DNA of 64,000 nucleotides from Chloroflexota bacterium (lineage in GTDB: Bacteria; Chloroflexota; UBA11872; VXOZ01). The notes beneath the pieces were generated by a model that saw only the letters and a program-made list of their open reading frames with translations, was not told where the DNA came from and ran no database searches. The DNA lies in contig OY760183.1 of NCBI GenBank assembly GCA_963663275.1, positions 3,040,001-3,104,000 of the forward strand, in the 5' to 3' direction. Positions 1 through 14,777 of this stretch are shown piece after piece. Both the position numbers and the translations under genes were made by a program. Positions within the stretch are counted from its first letter, which is position 1; each line of letters starts with the position of its first letter.

Positions 1-650
1 TAGAGGCCTTCCACAATGCCGGTCATGGCGTCGAAGAAATAGGCCCCAACCGCGAACACGGCCCCGATGACGCCGGCCAGGCGGCGCGACGGCAGCAAGG
101 CGGAGAGGAAGAGCGAAAAGCAATAGAAGAGCGCGCCCATGCCAAACGTGTTGAGCATGACAACGGCCAGCCGGTCGAACGCCAACGCGGCGCCCTCCAC
201 GAACCCGGCGCTCACCCAGAGCACGACTCCGATGATTACCAGCACAAGCGCCAGGCTCACAAGCGTCGCGATCGCCTTTTGCAGAACTACCTGGCTGCGC
301 GCTATGGGCAGGGAGAGGAGTGTGTCCATGGTGCCGCGTTCTTCCTCGCCGCGCAGCGCGCCGGTGCCCTCGATGATGGCGAAAATCGCCAGAATCAGCG
401 GCAGGATGATCAGGTACTGCGACACCAGATAGCCCTCGAATTCGGTGAGGGAAAGCACGCCGCCCGTGAACGCCTTGTATGCGTCCGGCAGGTTTTCCAT
501 CGCCTCTTCGAGATCGGCGCCGGCCTCCGCGAACGTGGGATAGATCGCCATCATCAGCAGCGCCAGCGCGCCCAGTCCCAGGCCGTAGGCCAGCACGGGA
601 ATGCGCTGATCGCGCAGCGTCTTAAGCAGAAGGTTCCGCAGCATGGCCAT
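1..650 (-). CDS. ABC transporter permease (truncated by window edge)
   Basis: Minus-strand frame from ATG 650 reads MAMLRNLLLKTLRDQRIPVLAYGLGLGALALLMMAIYPTF, is hydrophobic and overlaps the ABC ATPase stop. Confidence 0.85.
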   Translation of the reverse strand, partial: MAMLRNLLLKTLRDQRIPVLAYGLGLGALALLMMAIYPTFAEAGADLEEAMENLPDAYKAFTGGVLSLTEFEGYLVSQYLIILPLILAIFAIIEGTGALRGEEERGTMDTLLSLPIARSQVVLQKAIATLVSLALVLVIIGVVLWVSAGFVEGAALAFDRLAVVMLNTFGMGALFYCFSLFLSALLPSRRLAGVIGAVFAVGAYFFDAMTGIVEGL

Positions 651-1578
651 CCTCGCGGGTGTCGTAGTACTGGAGGAAGATGTCCTCCAGGCGTCGTTCC
701 TGGTACTCGATGTCCACCACCGTGTAGCGCGCCGCTTCCTTGAGCGCCCCGGCAAGATTGCTCTGCACCAGCGCCACCACCGTAGCGCCCTCCTGGGATT
801 CCTTCTGCACGCCGGGCACCGCCGTGAGGAAGTCCGCGGGCGGCGGTTCGCCGAATTCCAGCCGCAGCCTGCGCACCTGCTTCTCCTGAATCGCTTCCAG
901 GGTGTCGCTCAAGATGAGTGAGCCGTCGCGGATGACGCCCACCCGGTCGCAGATGCGTTCCACCTCGTCCAGGTAGTGGCTGGAGAAGAAAACCGTGCCG
1001 CCCTGCTGGCGGTACTCCTCCAAAATGCCGTAGAGTTCCTGCTGCATGAGGGGGTCGAGGCCGCTGGTGGCCTCGTCGAAGAGCACCAAGTCGGGCCGGT
1101 GCATCAGCGCCTGGAGCACGCCGATCTTCTGCTTGTTGCCCCGCGAAAGCGTGCCGATGCGCCGGTCGAGTGCCGCGTTCAGACGTTCGGCCAACTCGTG
1201 CGCGTAGGTCAGGTCCGCCACGCCGCGCACGGACCCGAAGAAGCGCAGCAGTTGCCTGCCGGTCAGATTGTCGTACATGCGCAGTTCGCCGGGCAGAAAG
1301 CCGACGCGGGCGCGGATGGCCTTCGACTGGCCCCGCGAGTCCATGCCAAGAATTGTCGCCGAGCCACGCGAGGCGCGGATGAAGTCGAGGAGCAGGCGTA
1401 CCGTGGTCGTCTTGCCCGCGCCGTTGGGGCCCACGAAACCGTAGATTTCGCCGCGCCGCACCTCGAGATCAAGGTCGACCACACCGCGGCTCTTGCCATA
1501 GTACTTCGTTAGCTGCCGCGTTTCAATCGCCAGTTCCGATGCCACGGGCGGCGTCCTCTCCGCGTTCACTCTTGCCAC
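622..1578 (-). CDS. ABC transporter ATP-binding protein
   Basis: Walker A GPNGAGKTT, signature LSRGNKQK, Walker B VLFDEATSGLD, H-loop SSHYL. Confidence 0.95.
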   Translation of the reverse strand: MARVNAERTPPVASELAIETRQLTKYYGKSRGVVDLDLEVRRGEIYGFVGPNGAGKTTTVRLLLDFIRASRGSATILGMDSRGQSKAIRARVGFLPGELRMYDNLTGRQLLRFFGSVRGVADLTYAHELAERLNAALDRRIGTLSRGNKQKIGVLQALMHRPDLVLFDEATSGLDPLMQQELYGILEEYRQQGGTVFFSSHYLDEVERICDRVGVIRDGSLILSDTLEAIQEKQVRRLRLEFGEPPPADFLTAVPGVQKESQEGATVVALVQSNLAGALKEAARYTVVDIEYQERRLEDIFLQYYDTREDGHAAEPSA

Positions 1579-1929
1579 GGGCAGCTGGGCGGAAACACGT
1601 CCCGGTTAACCCGCTTACGCCCTGGCGTTGAGGCTCGATTCGTGGGTACTATAACATACGATGAGTGCGCGGGCTAGTATACTGTAAAGGGAGCGCGGCG
1701 CGGCCGGTTGCGAAAAGCCGGCGCGCCGCCGGGCCGGCCCTCCCGGCACGCTGGGAGCGCACTGGCTCTTGACTGCGCTTGCGAGCGCGAAACGCACACC
1801 GCTTAAGGCACTTCTCAGGTTGCGCGTATAGAATGGAGCGCGGCCAGACCGGTGAAACCGCCGCTCGACGCGGGCGGCAGGCACGGGCAAGAGTGGGTTC
1901 CAAGACGCGCGGCAACGGAGGTTTGCGCA

Positions 1930-2778
1930 ATGACTAATCTGGATAGACGAGCCTGGATCGGCATCTCCGCCCTAGCGGTGGGCGTGGTCATTCTGCTCAT
2001 CGTGATCTTTGCTTCCGTCCGCAACGCGGGCCAGCAGTTCCTCAACCTCTTCCGCGTCGAACAGGCGCAGACGATACAACTCACGCAAGAGTTCCTGGAT
2101 TCCCTGCCGGAGCCGGACAGCGAGATTATCCAGTGGGTGCAGGAGCCGTCCGATGAGTTCGAACCGCGTGAAGTTTCGCTTGAAGATGCCGAAGAGGAAC
2201 TCGGCTTCCGCTTGGCGCGGCTGACCGAGCCGCCGGACGTTCTCCAGACGGAGCCGGAAGTCTGGCTTACCGAAGCGGATGAAGCCACCTTTACGCTGGA
2301 CCTGCCCGGCGTGCGCAACTACATCTGGGCATTGGGCGGCGACGGCGCTATGCTCCCCGATAGCCTGGAAGGCGCGGTCTTCCGCGTCACCATGCCCCAG
2401 GTAGGGATGCTCTACTACGCAGCGAAAGACAACCCCGACCAGGGCGTGCGTCTCTTCCAGACCACCAGCCCCACGCTCGCGGTCCCTGACGGCATCGACA
2501 TGGACGCCATTCGCGACGAACTCCTGGAACTGGACATCCTGCCCCCGGAACTGGCCGCGCAACTGCGAGCGATAGAGGATTGGGAGAGCACCCTGCCGCT
2601 GCCGCTGGTGGAAGGCATGTCCGAGGAAGTAAGCGTTGGCTCCGCGACCGCGGTGCGGTTCTTCAACGTGGACGACGAAGACCGTATGCTCGTCTGGGTC
2701 GCTCAAAACCGTATCCACGTGCTGAGCACGAATGTGCCCGACCTGGACCTGGCCGCGCTGGCGGAGAGCGTCGAGTAG
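1930..2778 (+). CDS. Membrane-anchored hypothetical protein resembling the extracytoplasmic part of anti-sigma factors
   Basis: N-terminal TM helix then an acidic domain (QFLNLFRVEQ, LRAIEDWESTLPLPL); GGAGG before ATG 1930. Confidence 0.6.
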   Translation: MTNLDRRAWIGISALAVGVVILLIVIFASVRNAGQQFLNLFRVEQAQTIQLTQEFLDSLPEPDSEIIQWVQEPSDEFEPREVSLEDAEEELGFRLARLTEPPDVLQTEPEVWLTEADEATFTLDLPGVRNYIWALGGDGAMLPDSLEGAVFRVTMPQVGMLYYAAKDNPDQGVRLFQTTSPTLAVPDGIDMDAIRDELLELDILPPELAAQLRAIEDWESTLPLPLVEGMSEEVSVGSATAVRFFNVDDEDRMLVWVAQNRIHVLSTNVPDLDLAALAESVE

Positions 2779-2873
2779 GACTCTAGTGGGGTTGGATAGG
2801 GAGATCCCCTAGGTCCTAATCCACGATTTCGAGCGAACCACATCGTGATACTGTGCAAACCATACCGTGAAGT

Positions 2874-3218
2874 CGAACGACCCGTACCGTTCGCCCTGAG
2901 CATCGTCGAAGGGTGAACGGTAGGGGAAAACGGGCAAAAGTTTCCAAAGCGCCGCCCTCTCCGTTCATGCTTCGACAGGCTCAGCACGAACGGAGAGAGG
3001 CGCCCTGACCCTTATCCACGATAACGTGCGAACCATTCCGCGTAGATGAACGAAGCATTTCCCGTAGACGAGCGACCCCTACCGTGACGACGAACGACCC
3101 ATCCCGTTCGCCCTGAGCATCGTCGAAGGGTGAACGGTACGGGTAATCAGTAAGAGTTCCCAAGACGCCGCTCTTTCCGTTCGTGCTGAGCCTGTCGAAG
3201 CATGAACGGAAAGAGCGG
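2874..3218. repeat. Two REP family A doublets (CCGTTCGCCCTGAGC..GTCGAAGGGTGAACGG type)
   Basis: Near-duplicate units at about 2874-2998 and 3092-3218; the family recurs at about 28799, 39123, 39185, 44866, 44926 and 45052. Confidence 0.85.
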
Positions 3219-3433
3219 CGTACATTACACTGGGAATAAACAGGACAAGACTCCGTCGTTGCCTCACCCAGTCCGTCATTCCCGCTCACTCAGTCCGTCA
3301 CTCCGGCGCAAGCCGGAATCCAGCTTCCGCTCGCGTCACGGATTCCCTCCCGCGCGGGATGCGCCGACCGCCTGCATTAAGGTACCCTGATGCCGGTAGA
3401 TTATGTCCGCTCATCTTGGAAGAGGAGACCTCA

Positions 3434-4108
3434 ATGAATTACGAGATTCTGCACCGGCCGTCGTACGCGCTGTTGAAGGTTGACCTAGCCGCCGGTGAGA
3501 GCGTGAGCGCCGAATCCGGCGCGATGGTCAGCATGTCCGACGGCATTGAGATCGAAACCAGTATGCGCGGCGGCCTCTTGGGCGGATTGAAGCGCAAGGT
3601 CCTGGGCGGCGAGTCGTTCTTCGTGAACACATTCAACGCTTCGCAAGACGGCGAGGTGAACTTCGCCCCCAGCCTGCCCGGCGACGTCTACGCGGTGGAA
3701 CTGCGCGGCGAGACCATCTACGCGCAATCCGGGGCCTACATCGCCTCCACCGCCGGCATCGACGTGGACACCTCCTGGGGCGGCGCCAAGACCTTCTTCT
3801 CCGGCGAAGGCTTCTTCATGCTCAAGATCAGTGGCAGCGGCACGGTCTTCCTCTCCAGTTATGGCGCGATTCACGAAGTCGAACTGGCGGCCGGCCAGAC
3901 CTACACCGTGGATACCGGTCACATGGTCTCTTTCGCCGAAGGCGTGGGCTACAACGTGCGGCGCGTGGGCGGAATGAAGTCCACCTTCTTCAGCGGCGAA
4001 GGCCTGGTGGTGGAACTCACCGGCCCCGGCACGATCACCATCCAATCCCGCAGCACCGACGCCCTGCTGGCATGGCTCATACCCCACCTGCCAGACAAGT
4101 CGGGATAA
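3434..4108 (+). CDS. TIGR00266/AIM24 family protein
   Basis: AESGAMVSMS, GGESFFVNTF, FFSGEG repeats, VDTGHMV; GAGGAG RBS before ATG 3434. Confidence 0.92.
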   Translation: MNYEILHRPSYALLKVDLAAGESVSAESGAMVSMSDGIEIETSMRGGLLGGLKRKVLGGESFFVNTFNASQDGEVNFAPSLPGDVYAVELRGETIYAQSGAYIASTAGIDVDTSWGGAKTFFSGEGFFMLKISGSGTVFLSSYGAIHEVELAAGQTYTVDTGHMVSFAEGVGYNVRRVGGMKSTFFSGEGLVVELTGPGTITIQSRSTDALLAWLIPHLPDKSG

Positions 4109-5375
4109 CGGCAGACTCTTCAAAACTGTCCTCCAGACAAGCTGGGTTCCGTTCAACGGATCCGTCGAGTACGCGGCTAAGCGCCAAAGAGATAGGGAAG
4201 ACTTCCTACTAACGTAGGGACTCTTGATGTTGTTGATAGAGTGCGCAGGCCATGTGTGCCCAGAAGATTGGCAAAGGCTCAGGCCGACGAACATTGAGAT
4301 TGTGCCCAAGGCTGGCATGTCAGACGCTCCCGCGCTACTTCAACGCTGAGACTAGAAGACCCATGCCCTTCGCCAGGCAGCAAAGGCCTGCCTCTCGGGT
4401 TTCCGTATGTCAGTATTTGCGCTTCAGGCGCCCCTGGTTACGGATACTCACTTAGAGTCATTGCAAGCCGCGGTAGATCGTGGCACGAGATTGCCCTGAC
4501 CGATGGTCGCAAGAGCGTGCAGTCTGATACAATGCACATTAGGGACATTGGAGCGGCAGTAAAGAAAGGAGTGGCTACTAGCGCATAACATCAATAGCTG
4601 CTGGTGTCTCTGCATCCTTATTGACACCCCTTGCATGCGAAGTCCAATTCATAAAACCGTGGGAGATTCTTCCCTCCGTTTTAGCGAAAGGACGCGCGAT
4701 GCCCAGCGGAAATGTAACTGACCGCAAGCCCATATATAGAATTATAGATTTGTGGCGAAAGATCGTGCCGGGTAATGCTGTGGGCACTTCGAAGTGTAAC
4801 CCAGAGCCGCTTCTGAAGAGAGTGCGCAATAACAATATAATGACGTTCATTTGGGAGCACAAGATGGGCTGCATATGTTTTCTGGAATTTGTTCTCCTAA
4901 TGTTGGATGTATTTGACAGGTTCAAGTAAGAATCGGTGGTAGAGCCCGTTAATCCGGGAGCCATTGAGTACGCCTTGAACCAATTTTGGACGCGCTTCAA
5001 CCGCGGGCGCTGATGGAAAGTGCTTCGCAAAGCAAGGGTACGATAGGTCGAGGGCCGCCGAGCTTGGAGCATTCAATGTCCCAGGCAAGGCGGCTCTTGG
5101 CGTCGGTAGGCGCGCCGGCTGTCTGCTCTCTGTTTTGGGGGCAAGCCCCTAACTCTCAACGTAAAGGCAAGTCGTGTAGAGTGCTGCGGAGGACACTCCC
5201 GGTTCTCAGGGAAGGCAATGACCTCGGCCGCGCTCGTGCCGACATCCTAGCTGTCCACCGTGGGTAGCTACGTTGTCTTCGCGCACCTGTAGACTGACGT
5301 TCTCTGTGAGTACCTCAGATCGTATCCTGCGCGCGGTCAATTATGCCCTTTTGCCAATGAACTGGCTAAAGACGC

Positions 5376-5404
5376 TTGCGCATGGGGCAACACTGTGCTA
5401 AAAT
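5376..5404 (+). promoter_or_regulatory. Sigma70-like promoter (TTGCGC, TGn-TAAAAT)
   Basis: -35-like TTGCGC, 17-bp spacer and extended -10 upstream of the HEPN leader. Confidence 0.5.
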
Positions 5405-5529
5405 CCCTACGGATAAGCAAAGTCCAGAAGGAGGTGTGCTATGGTTTAGCAAACGGCATTGGAATTTTTGAAGTGTGAAGAAACATTTAAATTCCAATCT
5501 TTCTGAACAGCGGAATCAAGCAAAGCACT

Positions 5530-5551
5530 AGCACCTGTCGGTGCTTTTTTT
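5530..5551 (+). terminator. Intrinsic terminator in the leader of the HEPN gene
   Basis: AGCACC-TGTC-GGTGCT hairpin followed by a T run. Confidence 0.7.
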
Positions 5552-5587
5552 AATTTTGCTTACCGTATGGCAAGGAGTGTATTTGCC

Positions 5588-6076
5588 ATGGCCACAATTC
5601 GAAACCGTTCTACGCTGAGTTCTGACCTTCTCTTGGACGAGGCGCTAAGGGCGTGCCAACGGGGCCTCGCGAAGTACTGCTCACGCAAGTTGGTGCCGCC
5701 TTACTTTCGGCCCGATGAACTTGGCGATTTCGTGTTCGCTGTCGTCGGTCATCGATTGAATTTCCGGGGCTCCGATCCGGACCGCCTTTTCGAGCGCATG
5801 GATGAGGACTCCCTCCTCATGTTCATTGATAAGGCAGACTGGAGGATGGCCGATTTCTTCAGTGAGTTGACCCATTACGAGAGAGGGTTTGTCAAGAGCC
5901 TGCTCGTCCAGACCCGCTACTTTCGCGGCCTCTATGCTCACCGGCAGGAGATTCCGATAGACGACCAAGAATACTTCCTTGCAGGGCTCATTCGCCTACT
6001 GAGGATGGTTGAGGCGCACGAGGAAGCGGTTGAGGTCGAAGGCATTCGGATGAGGGCTAGGAGCGCGTCTCACTGA
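5588..6076 (+). CDS. Stand-alone Swt1-like HEPN domain protein (putative RNase)
   Basis: All-helical pattern LDEALRACQRGLAKY..MDEDSLL..W..FF..ERGFVKSL..RGLYAHRQEIPIDD..LIRLL fits the Swt1-like HEPN pattern with R-x4-H; AAGGAG RBS before ATG 5588 (alternative start 5567). Confidence 0.7.
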   Translation: MATIRNRSTLSSDLLLDEALRACQRGLAKYCSRKLVPPYFRPDELGDFVFAVVGHRLNFRGSDPDRLFERMDEDSLLMFIDKADWRMADFFSELTHYERGFVKSLLVQTRYFRGLYAHRQEIPIDDQEYFLAGLIRLLRMVEAHEEAVEVEGIRMRARSASH

Positions 6077-6369
6077 GAAGCTAGCCGTTGGCGCCGGTTG
6101 AGAGGGCACTAACGACTGCCGGTTTCCTCGTAGGCTAGAGGCCAACGGGCAAAAGGCCGTCGCGATTGGATCAATTGGTGATCCGGGCGCGGCGGCCATT
6201 TGCGTCTGTAGCGGGCGCGTCGGCTGCCCGCCCTTTGTTCATGGGCAAGCCAGATCAGCTTAAGGCTTGAGTAACCGGTGTTTGGCGCCCCAGAGAACGT
6301 CCCATTGCTTGAGGAGAGTGCTCCAAGTCGGTGTCGCGTTCAGTGCAAATTCTGAGTAGCGGCGTTCGG

Positions 6370-6615
6370 CTACAGTTCCGTTTCTAAGGTTCTGGCATGC
6401 GTGAGGTCTGCACCGGTTACGGGACGCGCCTGTGAGGGCAGAACCGTTGCAATGGCCACGGTCTCGCCGTCCAAGAACATGAACTCCACCACGAAGGCCT
6501 CGCTGCCGGGGTGCACGTGGACGATCGTGCCAACGTCGCCTGGCTGCAATTCCTCTCCGGCATCGCCAGAAACGGCAGAGAGGAGTACGATTTGTTCGTG
6601 CTCCTTGACTACTAT
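6370..6615 (-). pseudogene. DUF4926 domain protein with non-canonical or lost start (ATA)
   Basis: Frame IVVKEHEQIVLL..LQPGDVGTIVHVHPGSEAFVVEFMFLDGETVAIATVLPSQARPV; absent from the ORF track because it lacks a standard start. Confidence 0.7.
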
Positions 6616-6740
6616 TTCATGTTCCTCCTGGGCTTTGCCGCATTAAGTCTTGAGTATTCGCTGTCCTGTTCAATCCGCCAGCCGGTCACGACGCGCTGGC
6701 CTCGTCCTTCCAGCGTCCTATTCTCACCCTCGTCGTAGTG
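6612..6740 (-). pseudogene. Degenerate C-terminal remnant of a DUF6883-like gene
   Basis: HYDEGENRTLEGRGQRVVTGWRIEQDSEYSRLNAAKP resembles the C-terminus of the usual DUF4926 partner; stop overlaps the DUF4926 start. Confidence 0.5.
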
Positions 6741-7047
6741 TCAAGAACTATGGACGGCATGAGAGCAGCATTCGCAACCTCGTGGACTGCGTGATGTACT
6801 GCTATGACATCTGAAGAGTCTGCCAAGGCGCAGCAAGCATCCGATTCGACAGTCTTGGCCACTTGGTTCGACCGCTTGTGCCGTCGTAAAGTGCAAGTGG
6901 CCCATCTTTGGAAGCAAGAAGTGGCAATAGGAGATGTGCGACTGGATACAGCCCCTGAGCGTCAACGACTGAAAGCCTCCATGGATTTTTATCTAAAACC
7001 AAACGGGACTGGCGATACAGCACCAGTCCCGTTCATCTTGTAACGAA

Positions 7048-7287
7048 TCAATCAGTCTGCTGACGCTTCTCCTGTTCCTCTTTCCGCATCGGGTCCAACC
7101 CTGAACGGATTGCAGATAGGCTCCGAGCAAAGCAGTAGGGAATCACGGCTACGCACAAGGCGATAGCGGCAGCGGCGGCCTCCTGCGGGGAACTTTCGGC
7201 AGCAGATACACCGATTGCGAATACCCCACAGCCCGCCAGAGAAGCCAGCAGAGCGAATAGCCAAGCCAGTGAGTTAAGGATACGCAT
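7048..7287 (-). CDS. Small two-TM membrane protein
   Basis: Two hydrophobic helices around AESSPQEAAAAAIALCVAVIPYCFAR; 11 bp downstream of the secreted-protein gene. Confidence 0.75.
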   Translation of the reverse strand: MRILNSLAWLFALLASLAGCGVFAIGVSAAESSPQEAAAAAIALCVAVIPYCFARSLSAIRSGLDPMRKEEQEKRQQTD

Positions 7288-7298
7288 TGAAGCACCGC

Positions 7299-7940
7299 CT
7301 AGTTGCCAGCCGGAACTGGAACGAATCCCCGATCCATAGCGCGGAATTCAATGCGGGTGAGAGTAACCTGCTCGTTTACGTCGAAGATGGCAAGGCACGA
7401 CAGCGACCCAAGAGGCGATATCTGCTCGTCACAACCGATGATATCGACTGGCTCGAACTGTCGCCCGACTGCGTCAAAGCCTATCAGCCCTTCGTCATGA
7501 GAGAATGTGTCCAGATCGCCAACGTGAAACTTGCTCGGGCCAATGCCAACATTGGTGAGACGGAGTCCGACAAGGAGTAACTTGTGGTTATCCGCACTTG
7601 GGGTATATGTCTTGCCCCAAAAGCCGCTTGTCTCGAAGGATTCCCGTCTCTGAACTCCTAGCACCTCAAAAGCAAAGTTGCCAATGCGCGTGCCGGAATC
7701 GAAGGACAGGGAACTATCTGACAGCGGCAGTTTTGAATCTATCTCAATGGTGACGGGTACCTCGATCTGGTACTCGACTCCGTCGTAAGTGAACGTCAGC
7801 AGGGCCGTACTGCTGACTGAGGCTTCAATAGTTACTTTGCCGCCCTCGACCGTGACGCTTCCCTCGTTGGCAAATAGCGTCGGCACAAACAAGAACAGCA
7901 GTATACTCAGGGCAAGAGAACGAACGATCAGCCTACGCAT
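7299..7940 (-). CDS. Secreted beta-rich protein (DUF4352-like Ig fold)
   Basis: Signal peptide MRRLIVRSLALSILLFLFVPTLFA; LLLVGLRLTNVG..DAVGRQF..ISPLGS..AIFDV; AGGAGG RBS. Confidence 0.7.
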   Translation of the reverse strand: MRRLIVRSLALSILLFLFVPTLFANEGSVTVEGGKVTIEASVSSTALLTFTYDGVEYQIEVPVTIEIDSKLPLSDSSLSFDSGTRIGNFAFEVLGVQRRESFETSGFWGKTYTPSADNHKLLLVGLRLTNVGIGPSKFHVGDLDTFSHDEGLIGFDAVGRQFEPVDIIGCDEQISPLGSLSCLAIFDVNEQVTLTRIEFRAMDRGFVPVPAGN

Positions 7941-8076
7941 AGCGGTGCCTCCTCGCGACACAAACTTGAACTTTGGTCGCGACACCTAAGCACCTGAGCG
8001 AGCCGCGAGGAGACAAGTGTCCCTCGGCTCAAGCTTGTGCCTCGAAGCTCGCTCCAAATACCGTATAGGTGTCGCA
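7941..8076 (-). ncRNA. Candidate structured cis-regulatory 5' leader, copy 1
   Basis: Homologous to 8182-8319; stems GCGACACCT/AGGTGTCGC and GCGAGC/GCTCGC; anti-SD TGTCTCCTCGCG. Confidence 0.6.
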
Positions 8077-8082
8077 AGCAGC

Positions 8083-8174
8083 ATCGTATCAGGAGGCGAA
8101 ATTCACGTCAATTCTATGTCTACTTATTTCGCATGAGCCCATCATTGACGCAATTCTTCCCACTATGCTAATGT
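8083..8174. promoter_or_regulatory. Back-to-back sigma70 promoters
   Basis: Minus strand TTGACG(8111-8106)-17-TACGAT; plus strand TTGACG(8145-8150)-18-TAATGT; both have a TGn extended -10. Confidence 0.7.
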
Positions 8175-8181
8175 AACGCCA

Positions 8182-8319
8182 CGCGACACCTTAAGAGGCC
8201 CTGGCGAGCTTCGGGCACACACCTTGAGCTATTGGTTTAATTTGTCTCCTGGCGGCTCGCACGTGCGCTTGAGGTGTCGCGACCAAGAGCTCATCGTAGT
8301 GTCGCGAGGAGGCGTCATT
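8182..8319 (+). ncRNA. Candidate structured cis-regulatory 5' leader, copy 2
   Basis: CGCGACACCT 8182-8191 pairs AGGTGTCGCG 8272-8281; GCGAGC 8204-8209 pairs GCTCGC 8255-8260; TGTCTCCT 8243-8250 is complementary to SD AGGAGG 8307-8312. Confidence 0.6.
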
Positions 8320-8562
8320 GTGGGTACTACTGAGATTCTCATTCTCTCTCTCGTCGTAGTCGCCGGCTACTTCATCCCGCTCATTGTTGCACTGGTCCGG
8401 CGCAAGACCGGGCGCATGCAGGTCTTCATCGTCAACCTCTTCTTCGGTTGGACGTTCATCGGTTGGGTTATCGCATTGGTCATGGCATTCGGCTCAGACA
8501 GCGTCACTGTGGTGCACACAGTAGACCAGGGTACAAGGTCTGAAACGAAGGACGGTGAGTAA
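8320..8562 (+). CDS. Superinfection immunity protein (Imm_superinfect family)
   Basis: YFIPLIVALVR..VFIVNLFFGWTFIGWVIALVMA signature; GTG start after AGGAGG. Confidence 0.88.
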   Translation: MGTTEILILSLVVVAGYFIPLIVALVRRKTGRMQVFIVNLFFGWTFIGWVIALVMAFGSDSVTVVHTVDQGTRSETKDGE

Positions 8563-9185
8563 TGCGGGATACCAACGAGCAAATCGCCATTGAGCGCATT
8601 GACCCCGGCCAGGATAAGGAACTGTTGGCGCACATAGCCAACGAAGTTAGCGCGATTCTCACCGAGAACGAGCAATTCCAATACATCGCGCATCAGAATT
8701 GGACGGCTTTCGGTCAACGCAAGGATGCCCTCGTTGCCACCAACAACCGCTTGATCATCTATCAACGCCATTGGTTCGGGCAGTTAACGTTCCACGACTT
8801 TCTTTGGGAGGATGTCAAGAACGTCACGATCCGCGAGGGATTCATAGCCGCCCACATTTCATGCGAACTGACCGATGGCTGGACACACTTTGCCGGCGGC
8901 CTGGTGAAGACTCAGGCCCGCGCGCTCTATGCTATCTGCCAGCAGAAAGAACAAGAGTGGCGCGAGCGTCGCCGCGTGCGCAAAATGGAAGAAGAACGCG
9001 CCCGCGCGGGCGGCACTCAGATTACGGTGCCCGGCAGTCAAATGACGGCACCGAGTAGCGAGGCACCTAACGAAGGTGGATCCTCCCTAGACAAACTGAC
9101 GCAAGCGAAGCAAATGTTCGACCAAGAGTTAATCTCTGAATCGGAGTACGAGACGTTGAAGGCGAACATCCTTAGCAAGATGTGA
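8562..9185 (+). CDS. Bacterial PH-domain protein with C-terminal SHOCT
   Basis: ALVATNNRLIIY; C-terminal LDKLTQAKQMFDQELISESEYETLKANIL; TAATG coupling to the upstream gene. Confidence 0.85.
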   Translation: MRDTNEQIAIERIDPGQDKELLAHIANEVSAILTENEQFQYIAHQNWTAFGQRKDALVATNNRLIIYQRHWFGQLTFHDFLWEDVKNVTIREGFIAAHISCELTDGWTHFAGGLVKTQARALYAICQQKEQEWRERRRVRKMEEERARAGGTQITVPGSQMTAPSSEAPNEGGSSLDKLTQAKQMFDQELISESEYETLKANILSKM

Positions 9186-9424
9186 CCATTAAAACATCAT
9201 GCCGCTGCCTGAACTTCAAGACGTGCAAGAGTAAAACCACACTCGCTGGATGTGCGACTGACAAGATTGGTATTCTTGTGCACTTCCCATATGGGTCTCG
9301 CTCAGCGTGGTTTACGCGAAGGCGCATTGCCCAAGCGAGCACTCCCCTGCTACCCCCGCTCTTGAGCGTGTCTACTAAGTGTTGCGAGCGTGCCGTGGAT
9401 GTCGCTGGTCAGCCCTTAACTCAA

Positions 9425-10126
9425 TTAGGACGTTTCGCCGTTTTCGCTGTTCCAGGCGCGGCTGCCTTTGACGCGCAGATAGGCTGCGCCGGCTTCGATC
9501 CAGGCTTCGCGGTAGGCGTAGAGGGTTTTCTCGTTCGCGCCGGCCACGCTGCGCACCTCTTCCGCGGTCTGATGCAGCCAGGGCACGTTGTCCGCTACCT
9601 CGTCGGGGCGCTCCAGCAGGAAGCGGCGCATCTCCGCCAGCTTGGTCAGGCCGCCGGGCACGTCCGGTCCGGTGATCTCCCGCATCTCCTCCGCCGCGGC
9701 CAGCAGCGCGTCGGCGGCTTCCTTGTAGACCTCCCAGCGGCGCTGCATGCGTTCCATCATGTGCTGGATGTCGTCCAGCAGCGCCTCCACGTGCGCCGCG
9801 TCTGTGCCCACCCGCGCCGGTTCTTCCTCCTCGATGCGCTTCAGTTCGTCGATGCTGCCGCAGACGTCGGTATAGTGAGTCTGGCGCGCGGCGCCTTCCG
9901 CCGTCATGTCCGGCACGAACTGGTTGGCCCCGGCCCAGCGCACCCGGGGCAACTCCATCATGCCGCCGTCCTCGAAATACACCAGCGGCGGTTGGTTGTG
10001 GCCGGCCTCTTCCACGTGGGCCCGGCCCAGGGCGATTTTTTCCAGTATCTTCTCGCGGTGCGGCGACGGCGGCAGCCACCGCTCGTCAATACCAGCAACG
10101 GCAACTCTCTCTTCTACCTGGCTCAT
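9425..10126 (-). CDS. Hypothetical protein
   Basis: Long GC3-biased ORF; GAGGAG RBS before MSQVEE. Confidence 0.8.
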   Translation of the reverse strand: MSQVEERVAVAGIDERWLPPSPHREKILEKIALGRAHVEEAGHNQPPLVYFEDGGMMELPRVRWAGANQFVPDMTAEGAARQTHYTDVCGSIDELKRIEEEEPARVGTDAAHVEALLDDIQHMMERMQRRWEVYKEAADALLAAAEEMREITGPDVPGGLTKLAEMRRFLLERPDEVADNVPWLHQTAEEVRSVAGANEKTLYAYREAWIEAGAAYLRVKGSRAWNSENGETS

Positions 10127-10221
10127 CCTGAATGCTCCTCTTCCTGAATTACGTTCTACTGCGGCGCGCAAGGACTGGCGCTCTCCCTGCACTTCCGCAT
10201 TTTCCTTAGTATACTACGCTC

Positions 10222-10866
10222 ATGAATGACGTAATCCCGGAACTGCGCTTCGATAGCAGCCGTCGGATCGCGGCCCTGCGGAGCCATGGCGTCACCCTGC
10301 GCGGCGGCGCGGTGACCCTGCGGCCCATGACGGAAGGCGATTGGGACGTGCTGCTCACGTGGAACAACGATCCCGTCGTGATGGCGCTTGCCGACCACAG
10401 CCCCTTTGAAGAAACCGCGTTGGCCGAGTTGCAGACCATCTACCGCTGGATTTCCACTCACGCCCACTGCTTCATCATGGAAGTGGCGGGCGCGCCCATC
10501 GGCGAGTGCTGGCTGCAACGCATGAACCTGCAGCGGCTCGTAGACCAATTTCCCGACCAAGACCTGCGCCGCATCGACCTGATGATCGGCGAAAAAGAGC
10601 TTTGGGGACGCGGCTACGGCACGGAAACCATCGGGCTGCTGGTGGACTTTGGCTTCCGCGTGGAGCAGGCGGACGCCATCTGCGCCCTGGTTGCGGAAGA
10701 TAACCGCCGCAGCCAACGCGCCTTCCACAAGAACGGCTTCACCCGCCACGCCACCCTCCAAGAGCCGGATGGAACGGTAATCACCGATCTGGTCCTGCGG
10801 CGGACGGCATACGAGGCCGCGAGAGCAGGAGAGTCATCGCGGCAAAGTGGCGGGGATGGCGCGTGA
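10222..10866 (+). CDS. GNAT family N-acetyltransferase (RimJ/RimL-like)
   Basis: IGEKELWGRGYGTE, NRRSQRAFHKNGF. Confidence 0.9.
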   Translation: MNDVIPELRFDSSRRIAALRSHGVTLRGGAVTLRPMTEGDWDVLLTWNNDPVVMALADHSPFEETALAELQTIYRWISTHAHCFIMEVAGAPIGECWLQRMNLQRLVDQFPDQDLRRIDLMIGEKELWGRGYGTETIGLLVDFGFRVEQADAICALVAEDNRRSQRAFHKNGFTRHATLQEPDGTVITDLVLRRTAYEAARAGESSRQSGGDGA

Positions 10867-10910
10867 ATTTGCCCCCAAGAGTAGACGTGGGCTCCTTGCC
10901 GCGTGCCGGG

Positions 10911-12008
10911 CTATGCCGGCGTTACGGAGATCCCGCTGCCCTCGCTCACGCTGCCGATGATCCAGCAGGGCTCGTTGGCGGCGCGGAAGGCTGCTTCCAG
11001 TTGGGCCTGCCGTTGGGGCGGTACGGCTGCCAGGAGGCCGCCGCTGGTCTGGGGATCGAAGAGCAGCGCGGCAAGCGCAGGCGGGATTGCCGCGTCCAGC
11101 GTCAGCAGTCCTTCGTCCAGCAGGTGCGCGCGGTTGCGGTCCAGGCCGCCGGGAACCACGCCGTCGCGAGCGTAGTCCAGCGCGCCGGACAGCAGCGGGA
11201 CGGCTTGGGCGTCGATGATGAACCGGACGTTGCCGTGGCGCGCCATCTCCATGGCGTGGCCGAGCAGGCCGTAGCCAGTGACGTCGGTGCAGGCGTGGAT
11301 TCCGTTCGCCACTCCCACACCGTCCGTCTCTCCCGCGCAAGCGGTAGTCCCGGCGCCCAACCTCTGAAACAGCCGCGCGGCGCCGGCGTTCAGGCGGCAC
11401 ATGCTCGCGATGGCCTCCTCCAAGTGCGCCGGCGCCACGCAATCGCGCTTGTGGGCCGTGGTTATTACGCCGGTGCCGATCGGTTTCGTCAGCGCCAGCA
11501 GATCGCCTGGTTGCGCGCCGGACTTCGTGAAGATGCGGTCGGGATGCACCTGGCCGGTCACCGCCAGGCCGTACTTCGGCTCCTCGTCGGTCACCGTATG
11601 CCCGCCGGCGATCACCGCGCCGGCTTCCAGTACCTTGTCCGCGCCGCCCAGGAAGATGCGGCCCAGGATGTCCAGGTCCAGGTCGTCCGGAAAGCCCGCC
11701 AGGTTCAGGGCAAAGAGCGGCTCGCCGCCCATGGCGTAGACGTCGCTCAGGGCATTGGCGGCGGCAATTTGGCCGTAGGCGTAGGGGTCGTCCACCACGG
11801 GAGGAAAGAAGTCCGCCGTGCCGATGATGGCCCGCTCGTCGCTGATCCGATAGACGGCGGCGTCATCGGGCGCGGTGAGACCGACCAGCAGGTTGCTATT
11901 GGCTTGGGAGGGAAAGGCGCGCAGCACCTGCGCGAGCTCGGCGGGGCCGAGTTTGCCCGCTCACCCGGCGCAGTCGGCCAAGGCGGTCAATCGTACCGGT
12001 GTTGTCAT
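10911..12008 (-). CDS. selD: Selenide, water dikinase SelD with in-frame UGA (Sec16)
   Basis: MTTPVRLTALADCAG-UGA(11963-11961)-AGKLGP joins in frame to DDAAVY, NALSDVYAMGG, GGHT, TDVTGYGLLGH and DPQTSGGLL. Confidence 0.93.
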
Positions 12009-12093
12009 GCGGTCGTTCCTCGCAGGCCGCAAGAGGCCTTCATGGCAGGAAATGCCCAGCGGCGGCGTGTCCAATCCGTGGCGCGCGCGGCGG

Positions 12094-12609
12094 CTACACG
12101 TCGTCACCGTTCCCCATGCGCGCGAACAAGCCTTGGAACAGCCCCTCGATGCGCGACACGCGCTCGCTCAAGTCGGCAACGCGCTCACCCAAAGCGGCAA
12201 CGTGGGATTCCAGTGTGGAGACGCGTGTTTCCAGTGCAGAAAAGCGCGTTTCCAGCGCAGTAACACTCGATTCTACTTCAGAGAAGCGCTTTTCTAGTCC
12301 AGAGAAGCGCTGCTCCAGCCCAGAAAAGCGCGCTTCTAGCTCAGAATAGCGCTGCTCCAGCCCAGAAAAGCGCGCTTCTAACTCAGAATAGCGTTGCTCC
12401 AGCCCAGAAAAGCGCTGGTCAAGTTTGGTGAGGCGATCTTCCAGCCCAGAAAAGCGCTGCTCAAGTTTGGTGAAGCGATCTTCCAGCCCAGAAAAGCGTT
12501 GCTCATTGTGACGTTCGAGCGCGCGAATCTGCGCGATGATGATCCCACCAATTGCCGACATCGCAATGAGGATAGTCGCCAACAAGCCAATGAACTGTAC
12601 GTTATCCAT
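12094..12609 (-). CDS. TM-anchored coiled-coil heptad-repeat protein
   Basis: N-terminal TM then (RFSGLEQ/RYSELEA)n encoded by 21/42-bp tandem repeats; ends SRIEGL. Confidence 0.8.
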   Translation of the reverse strand: MDNVQFIGLLATILIAMSAIGGIIIAQIRALERHNEQRFSGLEDRFTKLEQRFSGLEDRLTKLDQRFSGLEQRYSELEARFSGLEQRYSELEARFSGLEQRFSGLEKRFSEVESSVTALETRFSALETRVSTLESHVAALGERVADLSERVSRIEGLFQGLFARMGNGDDV

Positions 12610-12794
12610 TGTGCCCTCGCTCTCCCACGCTCTTTCAGCTAGCGCCATTAGTATACTACACACTCACAGGAGAGCGTTGCAGCCAGTCGCAAAACCCGCC
12701 GCACCGCAGTACCGTATAACCGGCGCGGCGTCAACGTTCCTGCCAGGAATCGAGCCGCTACGCGGCAATTGCGCCACCCGCATCAAGGGCCAAA

Positions 12795-13643
12795 CTAAGC
12801 AAAGTCCCGCCATGAGTACTGCGCCGCAAAGCCCAGTTCGCGTTTCGCTTTGGCGTTGCTGATGCCGGACTCTGCGCCGGTAAGATGAGCGGCCATGTCG
12901 CCGATGCCGGGGAACGCCAGCGGCGCGGCTTCGGCCACGGGCACGGAGCAGAAGGCGTCGTCGGCCACGATGTAGTACGCGCCCTGCACGGCGGATTCCG
13001 TCTCCAACGCCAGGCGAAAGCCCACGGCCAGGTCGCGCACGTCCGCATAGCCCCAAATGCCGCCGTAGTAAGCGTTGAAGTCTGCCTCCAGCGCCGCCAG
13101 ACGATCCGGCCAGGTTTCCGGCATTACCACGTGCGACGGACGGATGGACACCGCGGGTATGCCCGTGCGCCGGTGGGCCATGTCCACGGTGTCCTCACCC
13201 ACCACCTTGGAGAGGGCGTAGGGATCTTGCGGCAGATCGGGATGGTTTTCGTCCAACGGCAGATAGTGCGGGGCAAAGTCCCGGTAGCGAAAGCTCATGC
13301 CGAGCACGTTGATGCTGCTGGTGGCCACGATCTTGCGCAGGCCCAGGGTGGCGGCGGCCTCGCACACGTTGTACGTGCCCATCACGTTCGTGCGGAAGAC
13401 GTACGCGTTGGCGTGGGTTCCCGGCGAGGGAATGGCCGAAAGGTGCACCACCGCCTCGGCCGGGGCCAGCAGTTCGAAGATCGTGCCCTCATCCTCATGG
13501 TCGCCCAGGCGATAGCGCACGCCGGGCTCCGGTTCCGGCGGGGCTACCCGATCGAACGAGACGACTTCGTGCCCGTGCCGCACAAGTTCGCGCACCACGT
13601 AGCGTCCGATATTGCCGCTGCCGCCGGTCACAACCACTTTCAT
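12795..13643 (-). CDS. NAD-dependent epimerase/dehydratase
   Basis: TGGSGNIG and YALSK motifs. Confidence 0.92.
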   Translation of the reverse strand: MKVVVTGGSGNIGRYVVRELVRHGHEVVSFDRVAPPEPEPGVRYRLGDHEDEGTIFELLAPAEAVVHLSAIPSPGTHANAYVFRTNVMGTYNVCEAAATLGLRKIVATSSINVLGMSFRYRDFAPHYLPLDENHPDLPQDPYALSKVVGEDTVDMAHRRTGIPAVSIRPSHVVMPETWPDRLAALEADFNAYYGGIWGYADVRDLAVGFRLALETESAVQGAYYIVADDAFCSVPVAEAAPLAFPGIGDMAAHLTGAESGISNAKAKRELGFAAQYSWRDFA

Positions 13644-13910
13644 GCCGTTTTCCTCCTCTTGGGCTGAATACTCGTGCTACGCTATGGTAACAGGCGCGCC
13701 CGTAGACCCGCCTGCTTGCGCATAGTTGACTGCCGCGTGCACGTTAGTATAGCGTGGGACACAACACTGGGCTGACCTCGCGCCTCGCGGAGCAATTGCA
13801 GGGGCGGCAAAAAGCAATTGACTTCGCGCCTCGCGCAGGCTGCGGCCGGTAGGGGCAGTTTCGCGACCTGCCTGGTAAAGTCACGAAGAAGAACTAAAGA
13901 GGAAGCGACA

Positions 13911-14768
13911 ATGAGTACGATTGCCATCGTTACCGACAGCACGAGCGATCTCGATCCCGCGGTTGCGGCGGAGCAGCACATTACCCTGGTGCCGGCGCAC
14001 GTGCGTTTCGGCGACGTCGACTACAAGGACGGCGTGGACATCACCGGCGAGCAGTTCTACGCCATGCTTACCGAGGCGCGGGACTTGCCCCAGACCTCGC
14101 AGCCTTCCGTGGGGGAATTTGCCGAGGTCTACGAACGGCTCGCCCAAGACCATGAGCACATCGTCTCGCTCCACGTCTCCGGCAAGCTGAGCGGCACCAT
14201 GCAGTCGGCGCTCACCGCCGCGCAGCAGTTCGAGGGAGAGTCGTCCTGCCAGATTCACGTGGTTGACACCCAATCGGCCTCGATTGGCTTGGCCTACATG
14301 GCGCGGGAAGCGGCGCGGCTGGTAGGGAAAGGCAGCGAAGCCGACCAGATCGTGAATCACATCAAGTACGTGGCGGGCCTCATGCATCTGGCCTTTACCC
14401 CGGATACGCTGGAGTACCTGCGGCGCGGCGGACGGCTGGGCGCGGCGTCCCACTTGCTGGGTTCGCTGCTCCGCATCAAGCCGGTGCTCATCCTCGAAGA
14501 CGGCGCGATCGAAGCGCTTGATAAGGTGCGCACGCGCTCACGCGTAGTGGAGCGCATGGTGCGCTACGTGGAATCCGTGGCCGGCGCCGACGCTACCCTC
14601 ACCCACCTGGGCGTGATGCACGCGAACGATCCGGATTTCGCGGCGGAGTTGCAGGAGGCAATCTTGGGCCGCGTCTCCGCCCAGAGCGTCTTGAACGGCT
14701 CGATCGGCCCGGCCATCGGCACCCATGCCGGCCCCGGCGCCGTTGGCATTTCATTTCATAAGGAGTAG
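13911..14768 (+). CDS. DegV family fatty acid-binding protein
   Basis: IVTDSTSDL, TSQPS, SGKLSGT, LRRGGR, IGTHAGPG. Confidence 0.95.
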   Translation: MSTIAIVTDSTSDLDPAVAAEQHITLVPAHVRFGDVDYKDGVDITGEQFYAMLTEARDLPQTSQPSVGEFAEVYERLAQDHEHIVSLHVSGKLSGTMQSALTAAQQFEGESSCQIHVVDTQSASIGLAYMAREAARLVGKGSEADQIVNHIKYVAGLMHLAFTPDTLEYLRRGGRLGAASHLLGSLLRIKPVLILEDGAIEALDKVRTRSRVVERMVRYVESVAGADATLTHLGVMHANDPDFAAELQEAILGRVSAQSVLNGSIGPAIGTHAGPGAVGISFHKE

Positions 14769-14777
14769 GTCACGTCT

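Follow-up and report, generated by a model that had tools for sequence, protein, structure and literature searches.

Two divergent operons with unrelated genes begin with what looks like one and the same RNA leader, and this locus raises the question of how they came to share it and what it does for them. The original prediction, drawn from the window (the whole 64,000-nucleotide stretch of a Chloroflexota genome that was analysed), was of twin homologous leaders on back-to-back promoters forming a riboswitch-like, two-state translational switch. We confirmed that the two leaders, each of ~135 nt, are 78-80% identical, and that all of the sequence blocks listed for them recur in the same order, with 80% mean column identity in a pairwise alignment. 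When copy 2 was searched against the whole 3.53-Mb genome using blastn, copy 1 was recovered at 78% identity (E = 7.7e-15), and the remaining four matches had E values of at least 1.88. Both promoters were found as well: the first was called by a promoter scan, and the second, though under the scan threshold, is visible in the sequence and aligns with the first in the pairwise alignment.

7941-8076, minus strand: leader copy 1, followed by the ATG at 7940 (folding and alignment; 158.8 bits to covariance model R1)
8083-8111, minus strand: copy 1 promoter, TTGACG, 17 nt, TG-n-TACGAT (called by promoter scan)
8182-8319, plus strand: leader copy 2, followed by the GTG at 8320 (folding and alignment; 131.9 bits to covariance model R1)
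8145-8174, plus strand: copy 2 promoter, TTGACG (8145-8150), 18 nt, TG-n-TAATGT (read from the sequence)

The downstream genes proved to be as earlier described, with a secreted and a membrane-like protein on one side and an Imm_superinfect and a bPH_3/SHOCT protein on the other, the SHOCT and DUF5325 matches lying below their cut-offs.

7299-7940, minus strand: 213-aa exported protein, the cargo-type gene of copy 1, with a signal-peptide-like hydrophobic N-terminus and matching no Pfam family
7048-7287, minus strand: 79-aa small membrane-like ORF, second gene of the copy 1 operon (DUF5325, 23.8 bits, under the 25-bit cut-off)
8320-8562, plus strand: 80-aa Imm_superinfect protein, first gene of the copy 2 operon (PF14373, 58 bits)
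8562-9185, plus strand: 207-aa bPH_3 and SHOCT protein, second gene of the copy 2 operon (SHOCT, 24.2 bits, below Pfam's 27-bit cut-off)

The Imm_superinfect protein is 60% identical to the gene behind a homologous leader, G016a. By eye and unaligned, the protein directly after another leader, G067a, resembles bPH_3 plus SHOCT.

The twin leaders genuinely belong to a family of folded mRNA leaders that had not been catalogued before, which has at least 37 distinct members and is almost confined to one genus of uncultivated Chloroflexota. Covariance models R1 and R2 gave 39 forward-strand matches in 14 of the 17 genomes of the genus, whereas blastn with copy 2 across 61 relatives yielded just two partial matches, so that the models were needed to see the family. 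In a phylum sample of 151 genomes, seven had matches (four in the genus, two in the class and one weak match elsewhere). A scan of genome contigs with an exact pattern recovered 16 stretches, 15 of them in Chloroflexota or Dehalococcoidia MAG records and mostly at loci of the genus already known; a metagenome scan gave one GC-rich stretch of doubtful nature, which was left out of the counts, and a scan of viral contigs gave no match. One stretch of the genome-contig scan, in a Gemmatimonadota MAG, shows no P1 arms on inspection and was likewise left out. The lineage is apparently sponge-associated, the habitat hints being weak (small-share sequence holders and MAG titles). Our alignment of 37 members leaves out the identical duplicates L021, L026 and L028 and four further copies from genome G006, G014a (truncated at a contig end), G124a (matching weakly, E = 5.9e-4), the 37-nt partial match G013:C1:1269382 and reverse-strand echoes of the hairpins.

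Every homologue lies directly 5' of a start codon, as the prediction demanded, with the codon 4-9 nt past the Shine-Dalgarno (SD) core in all 37 members. An ORF of at least 45 aa follows in 30 of the 37 by script, or in 32 after correction of two mis-called GTG starts, and 22 of them encode a hydrophobic N-terminus. The genes include DUF4352 exported proteins, Imm_superinfect, bPH/SHOCT and small membrane ORFs, among others. A MITE or dispersed repeat, which would occur as numerous non-autonomous copies bearing TIRs and target duplications and without a tie to gene starts, was considered and set aside: the window's own genome has three leaders, two in the window and a third elsewhere, each directly 5' of an ORF. 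Nor does the leader match a catalogued RNA family, in keeping with the prediction, which recognized no known riboswitch class in it. Rfam 15 gave no relevant match, returning just two chance-level matches elsewhere for positions 7000-9500 at E values up to 10, and only the tmRNA and one tRNA for the whole window at the gathering score.

We then asked which of the proposed helices the family preserves. The elements of the two window copies are located as follows.

8066-8076, minus strand: copy 1, P1a
8046-8052, minus strand: copy 1, P2a
8040-8045, minus strand: copy 1, SD-mimic
8027-8039, minus strand: copy 1, pseudoknot loop arm
8002-8014, minus strand: copy 1, anti-SD
7978-7988, minus strand: copy 1, P1b
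7960-7977, minus strand: copy 1, linker arm
7947-7959, minus strand: copy 1, SD strand
8182-8192, plus strand: copy 2, P1a
8204-8210, plus strand: copy 2, P2a
8211-8243, plus strand: copy 2, apical region
8244-8256, plus strand: copy 2, anti-SD
8271-8281, plus strand: copy 2, P1b
8282-8300, plus strand: copy 2, linker arm
8301-8313, plus strand: copy 2, SD strand

A single long hairpin is predicted for each copy, at -62.6 kcal/mol (z = -3.88) and -65.3 kcal/mol (z = -3.75), and 0 of 200 shuffles folded as well for either. Across the 37 homologues, the predicted arrangement of P1 enclosing P2 was paired in 89.4% of 649 cells, with both-side changes at 15 of 18 pairs. This covariation was reached by 0 of 500 shuffles, and slid controls were 32-44% paired. 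The alternative pairing between the 3' strand of P2 (the anti-SD) and the SD was likewise borne out: 92.7% of 480 cells were paired when SD variants were tracked, both-side changes occurred at five of 13 pairs, and slid controls reached 42-57%. Double-change cells numbered 25, where shuffles gave 8.5 +/- 2.3 and 0 of 500 reached the observed count, although shuffle statistics of this kind overstate independence because the members are related to one another. The SD variants GGAGG, GGGGG and GGGAG are answered by the anti-SDs CTCC, CCCC and TCCC. Pairing of the SD-mimic with the same anti-SD as the real SD was seen by eye only.

The third proposed contact, between the apical loop and the linker after P1, proved to be cognate-specific. 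Duplexes between a member's own loop and linker averaged -15.4 kcal/mol, compared with -10.3 kcal/mol for unrelated members; the cognate linker was better than all foreign linkers in 18 of the 37, and in both directions in 15. In at least seven members this pairing is no better than with a non-cognate partner, and some of these look degenerate. The arms of the pseudoknot differ completely in sequence between members. Among the 37, 22 positions are conserved at 90% or more: P1, the anti-SD and the SD strand hold 21 of them and the spacer from SD to start the other one, with none in loops or junctions. The base of P1 (GCNACAG/CUGUNGC) keeps its sequence and not just its pairing. G-U pairs are frequent (for example, UG in 30 of 37 members at pair 119-194) and the opposite strand scores 33.7 bits, as opposed to 158.8 bits for the sense strand, with model R1, which together point to a sense RNA. 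Upstream complementarity that covaries with the SD, at a sense-strand site directly 5' of a start codon, is what characterizes a generic cis-regulatory leader that sequesters the SD, and the family displays both features.

Three further ideas were discarded. A pairing of P1a with GUGUCGC just 5' of the SD is possible in the window copies and, by eye, unconserved in the other members. Where the model begins, a conserved ATG overlaps the -10 hexamer, upstream of the predicted start site, which speaks against a leader peptide. A guide or bridge RNA is disfavored by the variable segments, which complement one another and not the ends of the element.

These findings bear on whether the structure acts in DNA alone, as subterminal transposase-binding repeats or a hairpin of a transposon with no RNA function. 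The leader does adjoin a terminal inverted repeat (TIR) in 20 of the 39 copies, and the two window copies together make a large imperfect DNA palindrome. However, the frequent G-U pairs would turn into A-C mismatches in the complementary strand, the helices take in an SD at fixed spacing to the start codon, and leaders with compensatory changes are conserved in a genome that has no transposase. Moreover, the IS1595 transposase carries a DDE-type Pfam domain, and DDE enzymes of this family work on TIRs that are double-stranded. We regard this reading as hardly credible.

The neighborhood of the leaders in related genomes indicates where the shared leader may have come from. A match to PF12762 lies within 4 kb of 25 of the 39 leaders (20 convergent, four tandem and one divergent). 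In relatives, the typical order is a TIR holding the -35, the leader, a cargo gene and the transposase, with a separate short leader serving the transposase gene at the other TIR and intact elements holding one or two extra ORFs. These copies show the features of the IS1595 family: a transposase with PF12762 (DDE_Tnp_IS1595, 114.7 bits) and an N-terminal zinc ribbon (PF12760, 33.2 bits), TIR pairs matching at 17-21 of 24 positions, and perfect 8-bp direct repeats around eight of nine IS copies. An 8-bp target duplication is typical of this family. The 213-aa protein behind copy 1 shares 37% identity (E = 2e-36) with a protein carried as passenger by an intact IS in a relative's genome (G008). 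On the other hand, 14 of the 39 leaders have no nearby transposase and 30 of the 55 transposase matches have no leader, so that the link to the IS is frequent and not obligatory.

The window copies themselves lack both a transposase and paired TIRs around the module. The whole genome has no PF12762 match despite its three leaders, tblastn over window positions 1-16000 found no transposase remnant below E = 0.2, and no TIR partner was found around the window copies, the best match being 16-17 of 24 positions. Two features of the surroundings may be noted.

8119-8131, minus strand: degenerate IS1595-type TIR remnant upstream of the copy 1 promoter, with three mismatches to the TIR start GGGAATTAGTAGA
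4000-9300, no strand: low-GC islet containing both modules, 51-57% GC compared with 60-69% around it

The remnant alone is not above chance (four TIR-start matches in the window, 5.6 expected). Intact elements show the same placement just upstream of the -35, and in intact IS copies the same -35 as that of copy 1 sits inside the TIR. With three leaders but no such transposase in this genome, the window copies appear to be orphaned cargo modules in the low-GC islet. The leader would then be a portable expression module of IS1595-family elements, whose cargo is mostly exported or membrane proteins, and the two window copies and the third copy would be orphaned modules retained without any transposase. 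Such an origin would explain why unrelated genes share one leader. The prediction had named a match to a mobile element (a MITE) among the results that would refute it; the IS1595 association in relatives touches on that point, yet the evidence for RNA structure stands.

Taking these results together, we favor, with moderate confidence, a cis-acting two-state leader that gates translation and travels as a portable module of IS1595-family elements. A promoter-driven transcript would begin a few bases before P1 and yield a structured, cis-acting 5' leader. In state A, with the ribosome site open, P1, an extension, P2 and an apical stem would form one long rod, in which the SD-mimic pairs with the internal anti-SD GTCTCCTYGCGGC and leaves the linker and the real SD single-stranded. 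In state B, with the ribosome site hidden, the real SD region GYCGCRAGGAGGC would be bound by the same anti-SD, in a helix of up to 13 bp, and the apical loop by the linker; the resulting pseudoknot would occlude the ribosome-binding site. By alternating between SD-mimic and real SD, the anti-SD would set or gate translation of the following ORF. The structural side of the predicted switch is thus well supported, with four features of the leader backed, the SD-mimic by eye only, and we infer that the two states interconvert in vivo.

Energy calculations leave the balance of the states delicate. By a crude sum that ignores pseudoknot penalties, the rod amounts to -52.1 kcal/mol and P1 plus pseudoknot plus anti-SD:SD to -53.7 kcal/mol. 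When folding excludes pseudoknots, the rod is more stable than a forced anti-SD:SD pairing by ~10.5 kcal/mol on average over the 37 members, and that pairing is the minimum-energy fold in only four of the 37; state B may therefore be rare at equilibrium unless P1 is kept in the pseudoknot. On geometric reasoning, it is doubtful that the pseudoknot can form with the loop:linker and anti-SD:SD helices at full length, as they are joined by only 0-9 nt. As to what flips the states, we would look to a macromolecular or intrinsic trigger rather than a metabolite, candidates being processing of the rod by a nuclease, binding of a protein, the 5' context of the transcript or slow refolding after synthesis.

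It is here that the label "riboswitch-like" gives way. If the leader were a true riboswitch, binding of an ion or small molecule would shift it between the rod and the SD-sequestering pseudoknot and make cargo expression conditional. The multi-helix fold, the pseudoknot and the competing anti-SD and SD-mimic do resemble the expression platforms of translational riboswitches, the states are near iso-energetic by the crude sum, and an A-rich, GAAUA-like bulge recurs after P1a in many members. Yet riboswitches are built on a conserved aptamer core, in which certain unpaired nucleotides are invariant, and serve a coherent set of genes for one compound, and this family has neither. P1, the anti-SD and the SD strand contain all but one of its conserved positions and none falls where a pocket could form, the pseudoknot arms have entirely different sequences from member to member, the distribution is essentially one genus, and the downstream genes are functionally heterogeneous, with no common metabolic or transport theme. 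A metabolite riboswitch is consequently unlikely, and we give the true-riboswitch reading as a whole little credence. A new, transposon-riding class of signal-responsive RNA switches, sensing a small molecule, an ion or a physical cue, seems to us unlikely.

The rod might instead serve the processing or stability of the mRNA, a reading that we consider rather unlikely. As a 5'-terminal structure of ~30 bp, it would protect the mRNA, be cut by a double-strand-specific RNase or be bound by a protein. Cleavage could remove the SD-mimic strand, free the anti-SD and stop translation, or act in reverse, and a transposase or host factor recognizing the base of P1 could act likewise. The rod is long and nearly continuous and begins within a few nucleotides of the predicted start site, and the P1 base, conserved in both sequence and pairing, suits recognition by a protein. 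Long rods are RNase III substrates, and 5'-terminal hairpins stabilize mRNAs. A transposase-dependent mode, however, cannot be general, since this genome keeps its leaders without any transposase.

An insulator against outside transcription, in which transcripts from the leader's own promoter are open and read-through transcripts are blocked by an upstream anti-SD-like copy, was also weighed, together with a thermosensor, in which temperature would tip the leader from one state to the other. IS10 is known for fold-back inhibition of read-through transcripts. In 12 of the 37 members, no more than 15 of 300 shuffles equal the pairing that the promoter and the 62 nt upstream make with the SD strand (mean z = -0.94), and copy 1 scores 0 of 300. 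Against this, the upstream copy is absent from copy 2 and from most members, part of the signal is supplied by the extended -10 motif, and the covariation of the internal anti-SD with the SD is left unexplained. We judge both forms very improbable.

If the favored two-state leader is correct, it would represent something rare, a complex regulatory RNA, backed by covariation, housed in the cargo module of a transposable element and not in a host operon, and would provide a simple account of how unrelated genes acquire one common leader. It would offer a portable promoter-plus-leader cassette from an uncultivated Chloroflexota lineage, and 37 natural variants of one bistable design would be handy for studies of SD, anti-SD and SD-mimic switching. 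In genome annotation, the covariance model flags IS1595 cargo modules and their orphaned remnants. Should the switch respond to a signal, cargo expression would be conditional wherever an IS1595 element lands, placing exported, membrane and superinfection-immunity-like proteins under a control that stays under selection after the transposase is lost.

Known systems resemble the leader in part. A literature search found no description of a conserved structured leader before an IS passenger gene, and excerpts of PMC7371123 and PMC9208149 held nothing bearing on the leader. Passenger-carrying ("transporter") IS of the IS1595 family are recognized in the ISfinder classification. The relatives' elements are like these in their DDE_Tnp_IS1595 and zinc-ribbon transposase, TIRs, 8-bp duplications and one or two extra ORFs, and differ in the structured leader before the passenger gene; the window copies have moreover lost the transposase and the TIR pair. 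IS10 fold-back inhibition and the 5'-UTR stem-loop of IS200 are ribosome-site-occluding structures of IS mRNAs, simple hairpins that control the transposase gene. Here too a structure beside an IS end is predicted to pair with the SD and limit translation, and some members may, like IS10, discriminate against read-through transcripts. By contrast, our leader precedes cargo genes and not the transposase, with a ~135-nt multi-helix fold of two proposed states, an SD-mimic and a loop:linker pseudoknot.

SAM-II and preQ1-II are translational riboswitches with SD-sequestering pseudoknots, and the leader is similar in using the region just 5' of the SD for a pseudoknot and in its competing SD pairings. 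It departs from them in having no Rfam match at E values up to 10, no conserved unpaired core and heterogeneous genes. The leaders of E. coli rpsO (bound by S15) and of phage T4 gene 32 are autoregulatory, protein-bound mRNA pseudoknots. They share with our family a bistable hairpin/pseudoknot arrangement around the ribosome-binding site, and there a macromolecule selects the form. Whereas those leaders precede the gene of the binding protein itself, the genes here differ from copy to copy, and any protein that binds this leader must therefore act in trans.

We confirmed that the window carries two divergent promoter-leader units with homologous leaders, and every block listed in the original prediction was present in the pairwise alignment of copy 1 with copy 2 (80% mean column identity).

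Promoters and leaders of the two units in the window
8111-8106 (-35) to 8083 (-10), minus strand: copy 1 promoter, TTGACG, 17 nt, TG-n-TACGAT
8076-7941, minus strand: copy 1 leader, with ATG at 7940
8145-8150 (-35) to 8174 (-10), plus strand: copy 2 promoter, TTGACG, 18 nt, TG-n-TAATGT
8182-8319, plus strand: copy 2 leader, with GTG at 8320

A blastn search of the whole 3.53-Mb genome with copy 2 returned copy 1 as the sole other significant match (78%, E = 7.7e-15). A single long hairpin was predicted for each leader, at -62.6 kcal/mol (z = -3.88) in copy 1 and -65.3 kcal/mol (z = -3.75) in copy 2, and none of 200 shuffles was as stable in either case. The downstream genes matched their earlier description on both sides in a Pfam search: the copy 1 operon encodes a 213-aa protein whose N-terminus is hydrophobic, followed by a 79-aa ORF (DUF5325 match, under the Pfam cut-off), and the copy 2 operon encodes Imm_superinfect followed by bPH_3/SHOCT, the SHOCT match lying under Pfam's cut-off. 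Both modules reside in a 5-kb islet of 51-57% GC, flanked by sequence of 60-69% GC. This islet also contains a small DUF4926 ORF (6370-6549, minus strand, 42.1 bits) and, at its left edge, a low-GC stretch of about 1.4 kb (4110-5560, 51-54%) with short overlapping ORFs only, in which a transposase remnant was sought and not found; this stretch might represent mobile DNA in decay or else encode a non-coding RNA.

The leaders match no family in Rfam 15, in line with the earlier failure to recognize a known class; at gathering score, Rfam matched nothing in the window except a tmRNA gene (24905-25264, plus strand, 170.3 bits) and a tRNA gene (20174-20258, plus strand). Searches of 61 relatives with copy 2 by blastn gave just two partial matches, of which the one in G016, a relative, displayed three compensatory changes in P1. 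A covariance model built from four sequences (R1) was run on 98 genomes; within the genus it matched 9 of 16 other genomes, and outside it a single genome from a different family in the class. A model built from 25 sequences (R2) matched 13 of those 16. With R2, the genome of the window proved to hold a third leader, more divergent than the other two (G000:C1:741481-741635, minus strand; locus L083 1501-1655), with GGGGG as Shine-Dalgarno (SD) and CCCC as anti-SD; the protein encoded behind it is exported and at least 301 aa long (its frame stays open for 501 aa, up to the locus end). In a phylum sample of 151 genomes, seven had matches: four in the genus, two elsewhere in the class and a weak one in another family. 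When 185,579 species genomes were scanned for the exact pattern, 16 stretches came back, 15 from MAG records of Chloroflexota or Dehalococcoidia and the last a chance-looking match; a metagenome scan gave one stretch of doubtful status, and a scan of viral contigs found none. The alignment analyzed below (A5) holds 37 distinct members, leaving out identical duplicates (L021, L026, L028 and four further G006 copies), G014a (contig end), G124a (weak), G013:C1:1269382 (37-nt partial) and reverse-strand echoes.

Helices in the alignment of 37 leaders
P1 (11 pairs) and P2 (7 pairs), 18 pairs in total: 89.4% of 649 cells paired, 15 pairs changed on both sides
Anti-SD with SD region, 13 pairs: 92.7% of 480 cells paired, 5 pairs changed on both sides

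These figures back the predicted P1 enclosing P2, for which double-change cells numbered 101 against 28.9 +/- 6.2 in shuffles (0/500) and slid controls were 32-44% paired. The proposed pairing of a P2 strand with the SD was likewise borne out as a covarying helix, with 25 double-change cells against 8.5 +/- 2.3 in shuffles (0/500) and slid controls 42-57% paired. The anti-SD, consensus GTCTCCTYGCGGC, is located within the 3' strand of the hairpin, and its partner in the SD region is GYCGCRAGGAGGC. The Y:R pair of this helix occurs as U-A in 21 members and as C-G in 10, and an SD of GGGGG or GGGAG goes with an anti-SD of CCCC or TCCC in the same members. By eye, an SD-mimic in the 5' strand of the apical stem (GGAGAC, AAGGGG or GGGAAC) tracks the same SD variants, suggesting that the anti-SD has two alternative partners; this helix has no formal count because MAFFT loses its register. 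Evidence in favor of the sense RNA comes from frequent G-U pairs and from the far lower score of the opposite strand (33.7 versus 158.8 bits).

The apical loop and the linker from P1 to the SD differ wholly in sequence among members and are complementary within each. Examined on 25 members and then on 37, the cognate loop:linker duplex averaged -15.4 kcal/mol versus -10.3 for unrelated ones (paired Wilcoxon p = 1.9e-7, the members not being independent); the cognate linker was better than all unrelated linkers in 18/37, and in both directions in 15/37. The predicted pairing of the P2 loop with the linker is thus cognate-specific on average, and in at least seven members it was no better than non-cognate pairing; several of these look degenerate, also having weak P1 and short ORFs.

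In pseudoknot-free folding, the rod (P1, extension, P2 and apical stem) was the minimum-energy structure in most members and the SD core was unpaired with a mean probability of 0.43. Imposing anti-SD:SD pairing, which leaves no room for P1, carried a mean penalty of about 10.5 kcal/mol; in 4/37 members this pairing was itself the energy minimum. A crude sum ignoring pseudoknot penalties gave -53.7 kcal/mol for P1 kept with a pseudoknot of the 3' tail with the loop and anti-SD, versus -52.1 for the rod. Because they are joined by 0-9 nt only, the full-length loop:linker and anti-SD:SD helices should, by our geometric reasoning, be unable to coexist; shortened helices (7-8 bp and 9-13 bp) might do so in a pseudoknot. 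Collectively, the comparative data show that evolution keeps the rod, anti-SD:SD and loop:linker pairings all together, as is characteristic of leaders whose alternative conformations expose or hide the ribosome-binding site.

The start codon lies 4-9 nt past the SD core in 37/37 members, and ORFs of at least 45 aa follow the leader in 30/37 by script (32 with two missed GTG starts corrected), 22 of them with a hydrophobic N-terminal stretch. Many exported passengers, including the protein behind the third leader of the window's genome, have a common N-terminal Cys-containing domain without a Pfam match, and DUF4352 was found in 3 of 10 further passengers tested (two matches above the 25.9-bit cut-off, one just under at 25.2 bits). 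Five members with ORFs of at most 32 aa are probably decaying. Behind one leader in a Dehalococcoidia MAG (locus L039 5700-5862, minus strand), the ORF is 500 aa long and its N-terminus is not hydrophobic, a departure from the usual exported cargo.

Leaders duplicated within one genome proved to be parts of whole repeated units. In the 1.6-kb unit of G002, a relative, the left terminal inverted repeat (TIR) includes the -35 box and is followed by the leader and then a membrane ORF of 51 aa; the opposite strand, read inward from the right TIR, encodes a transposase of 287 aa (PF12762, 114.7 bits, and PF12760). In nine copies, paired TIRs delimit a unit 1.6-3.2 kb long, and perfect 8-bp direct repeats flank eight of these, which indicates recent transposition. 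The contig G006:C1 carries a leader-bearing IS in five identical copies (e.g. locus L082 1501-1649), whose passenger is a 122-aa protein, PH-domain-like by eye; their identity indicates an element that is active at present. Genus-wide, a PF12762 match lies within 4 kb of 25/39 forward-strand leaders (20 convergent downstream, 4 upstream on the same strand, 1 divergent), the other 14 having none nearby, and a leader lies near 25/55 PF12762 matches; the leader is common to two transposase clades about 35% identical to each other. At locus L064 (G016:C1:3244500-3250100), a 20-nt perfect palindrome, TACTTGACACGTGTCAAGTA, contains the -35 just upstream of the G016b leader; farther upstream, on the same strand, is an IS1595 transposase gene. 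The palindrome may act as an operator or terminator.

In the window's genome, a genome-wide search for PF12762 gave zero matches, and no transposase remnant was found near the window leaders; a degenerate TIR-like stretch directly upstream of the copy 1 -35 is not significant alone. The 213-aa product behind copy 1 shares 37% identity with the passenger protein of a G008 element that is intact. The copy 1 leader is 87% identical to the G004a leader, with different genes behind them, and the copy 2 leader is 62% identical to copy 1 versus 50% to the G016 leader (multiple alignment), which precedes an ortholog of the copy 2 gene (proteins 60% identical). These disagreements between leader and gene likenesses suggest either that leaders and cargo were shuffled or that two adjacent inverted copies swapped sequence.

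We weighed several readings of the leader. With moderate confidence, we favor a trigger-agnostic translational switch that is part of the IS cargo module, in which the open state would be the rod and the closed state the anti-SD:SD pseudoknot. Among the serious rivals, a metabolite riboswitch ranks last: with a single exception, positions at 90% conservation or above fall in P1, the anti-SD or the strand of the SD, the pseudoknot arms are free to vary in sequence and the downstream genes lack a common theme, so the riboswitch-like label of the original prediction is not supported. The reading as a riboswitch borne on a transposon is likewise improbable. Two other possibilities are more likely: that a nuclease processes, or a protein binds, the long rod at the 5' end, whose base GCNACAG / CUGUNGC is kept in sequence besides pairing, or that refolding is intrinsic or context-dependent.

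Besides the switch itself, 12/37 members, including copy 1, have a further anti-SD-like stretch between -35 and -10.

Promoter anti-SD-like stretch in the window
8084-8110, minus strand: CCTCCTGA in copy 1 (CTCCTTGC in several others)

Pairing of the promoter region with the SD strand was beaten by at most 15 of 300 shuffles in these 12, and part of the signal coincides with the extended -10. Lying upstream of the predicted start site, the stretch would be present in read-through transcripts only, whose translation it may block, resembling the fold-back inhibition known for IS10.

Our searches of the literature and Rfam turned up no account of the combination seen here, namely a complex two-state fold backed by covariation, its position before IS1595-family passenger genes and its retention in a genome that lost the transposase. 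The kind itself is already known, from cis-acting SD-sequestering leaders and from the RBS-occluding structures of insertion sequences.
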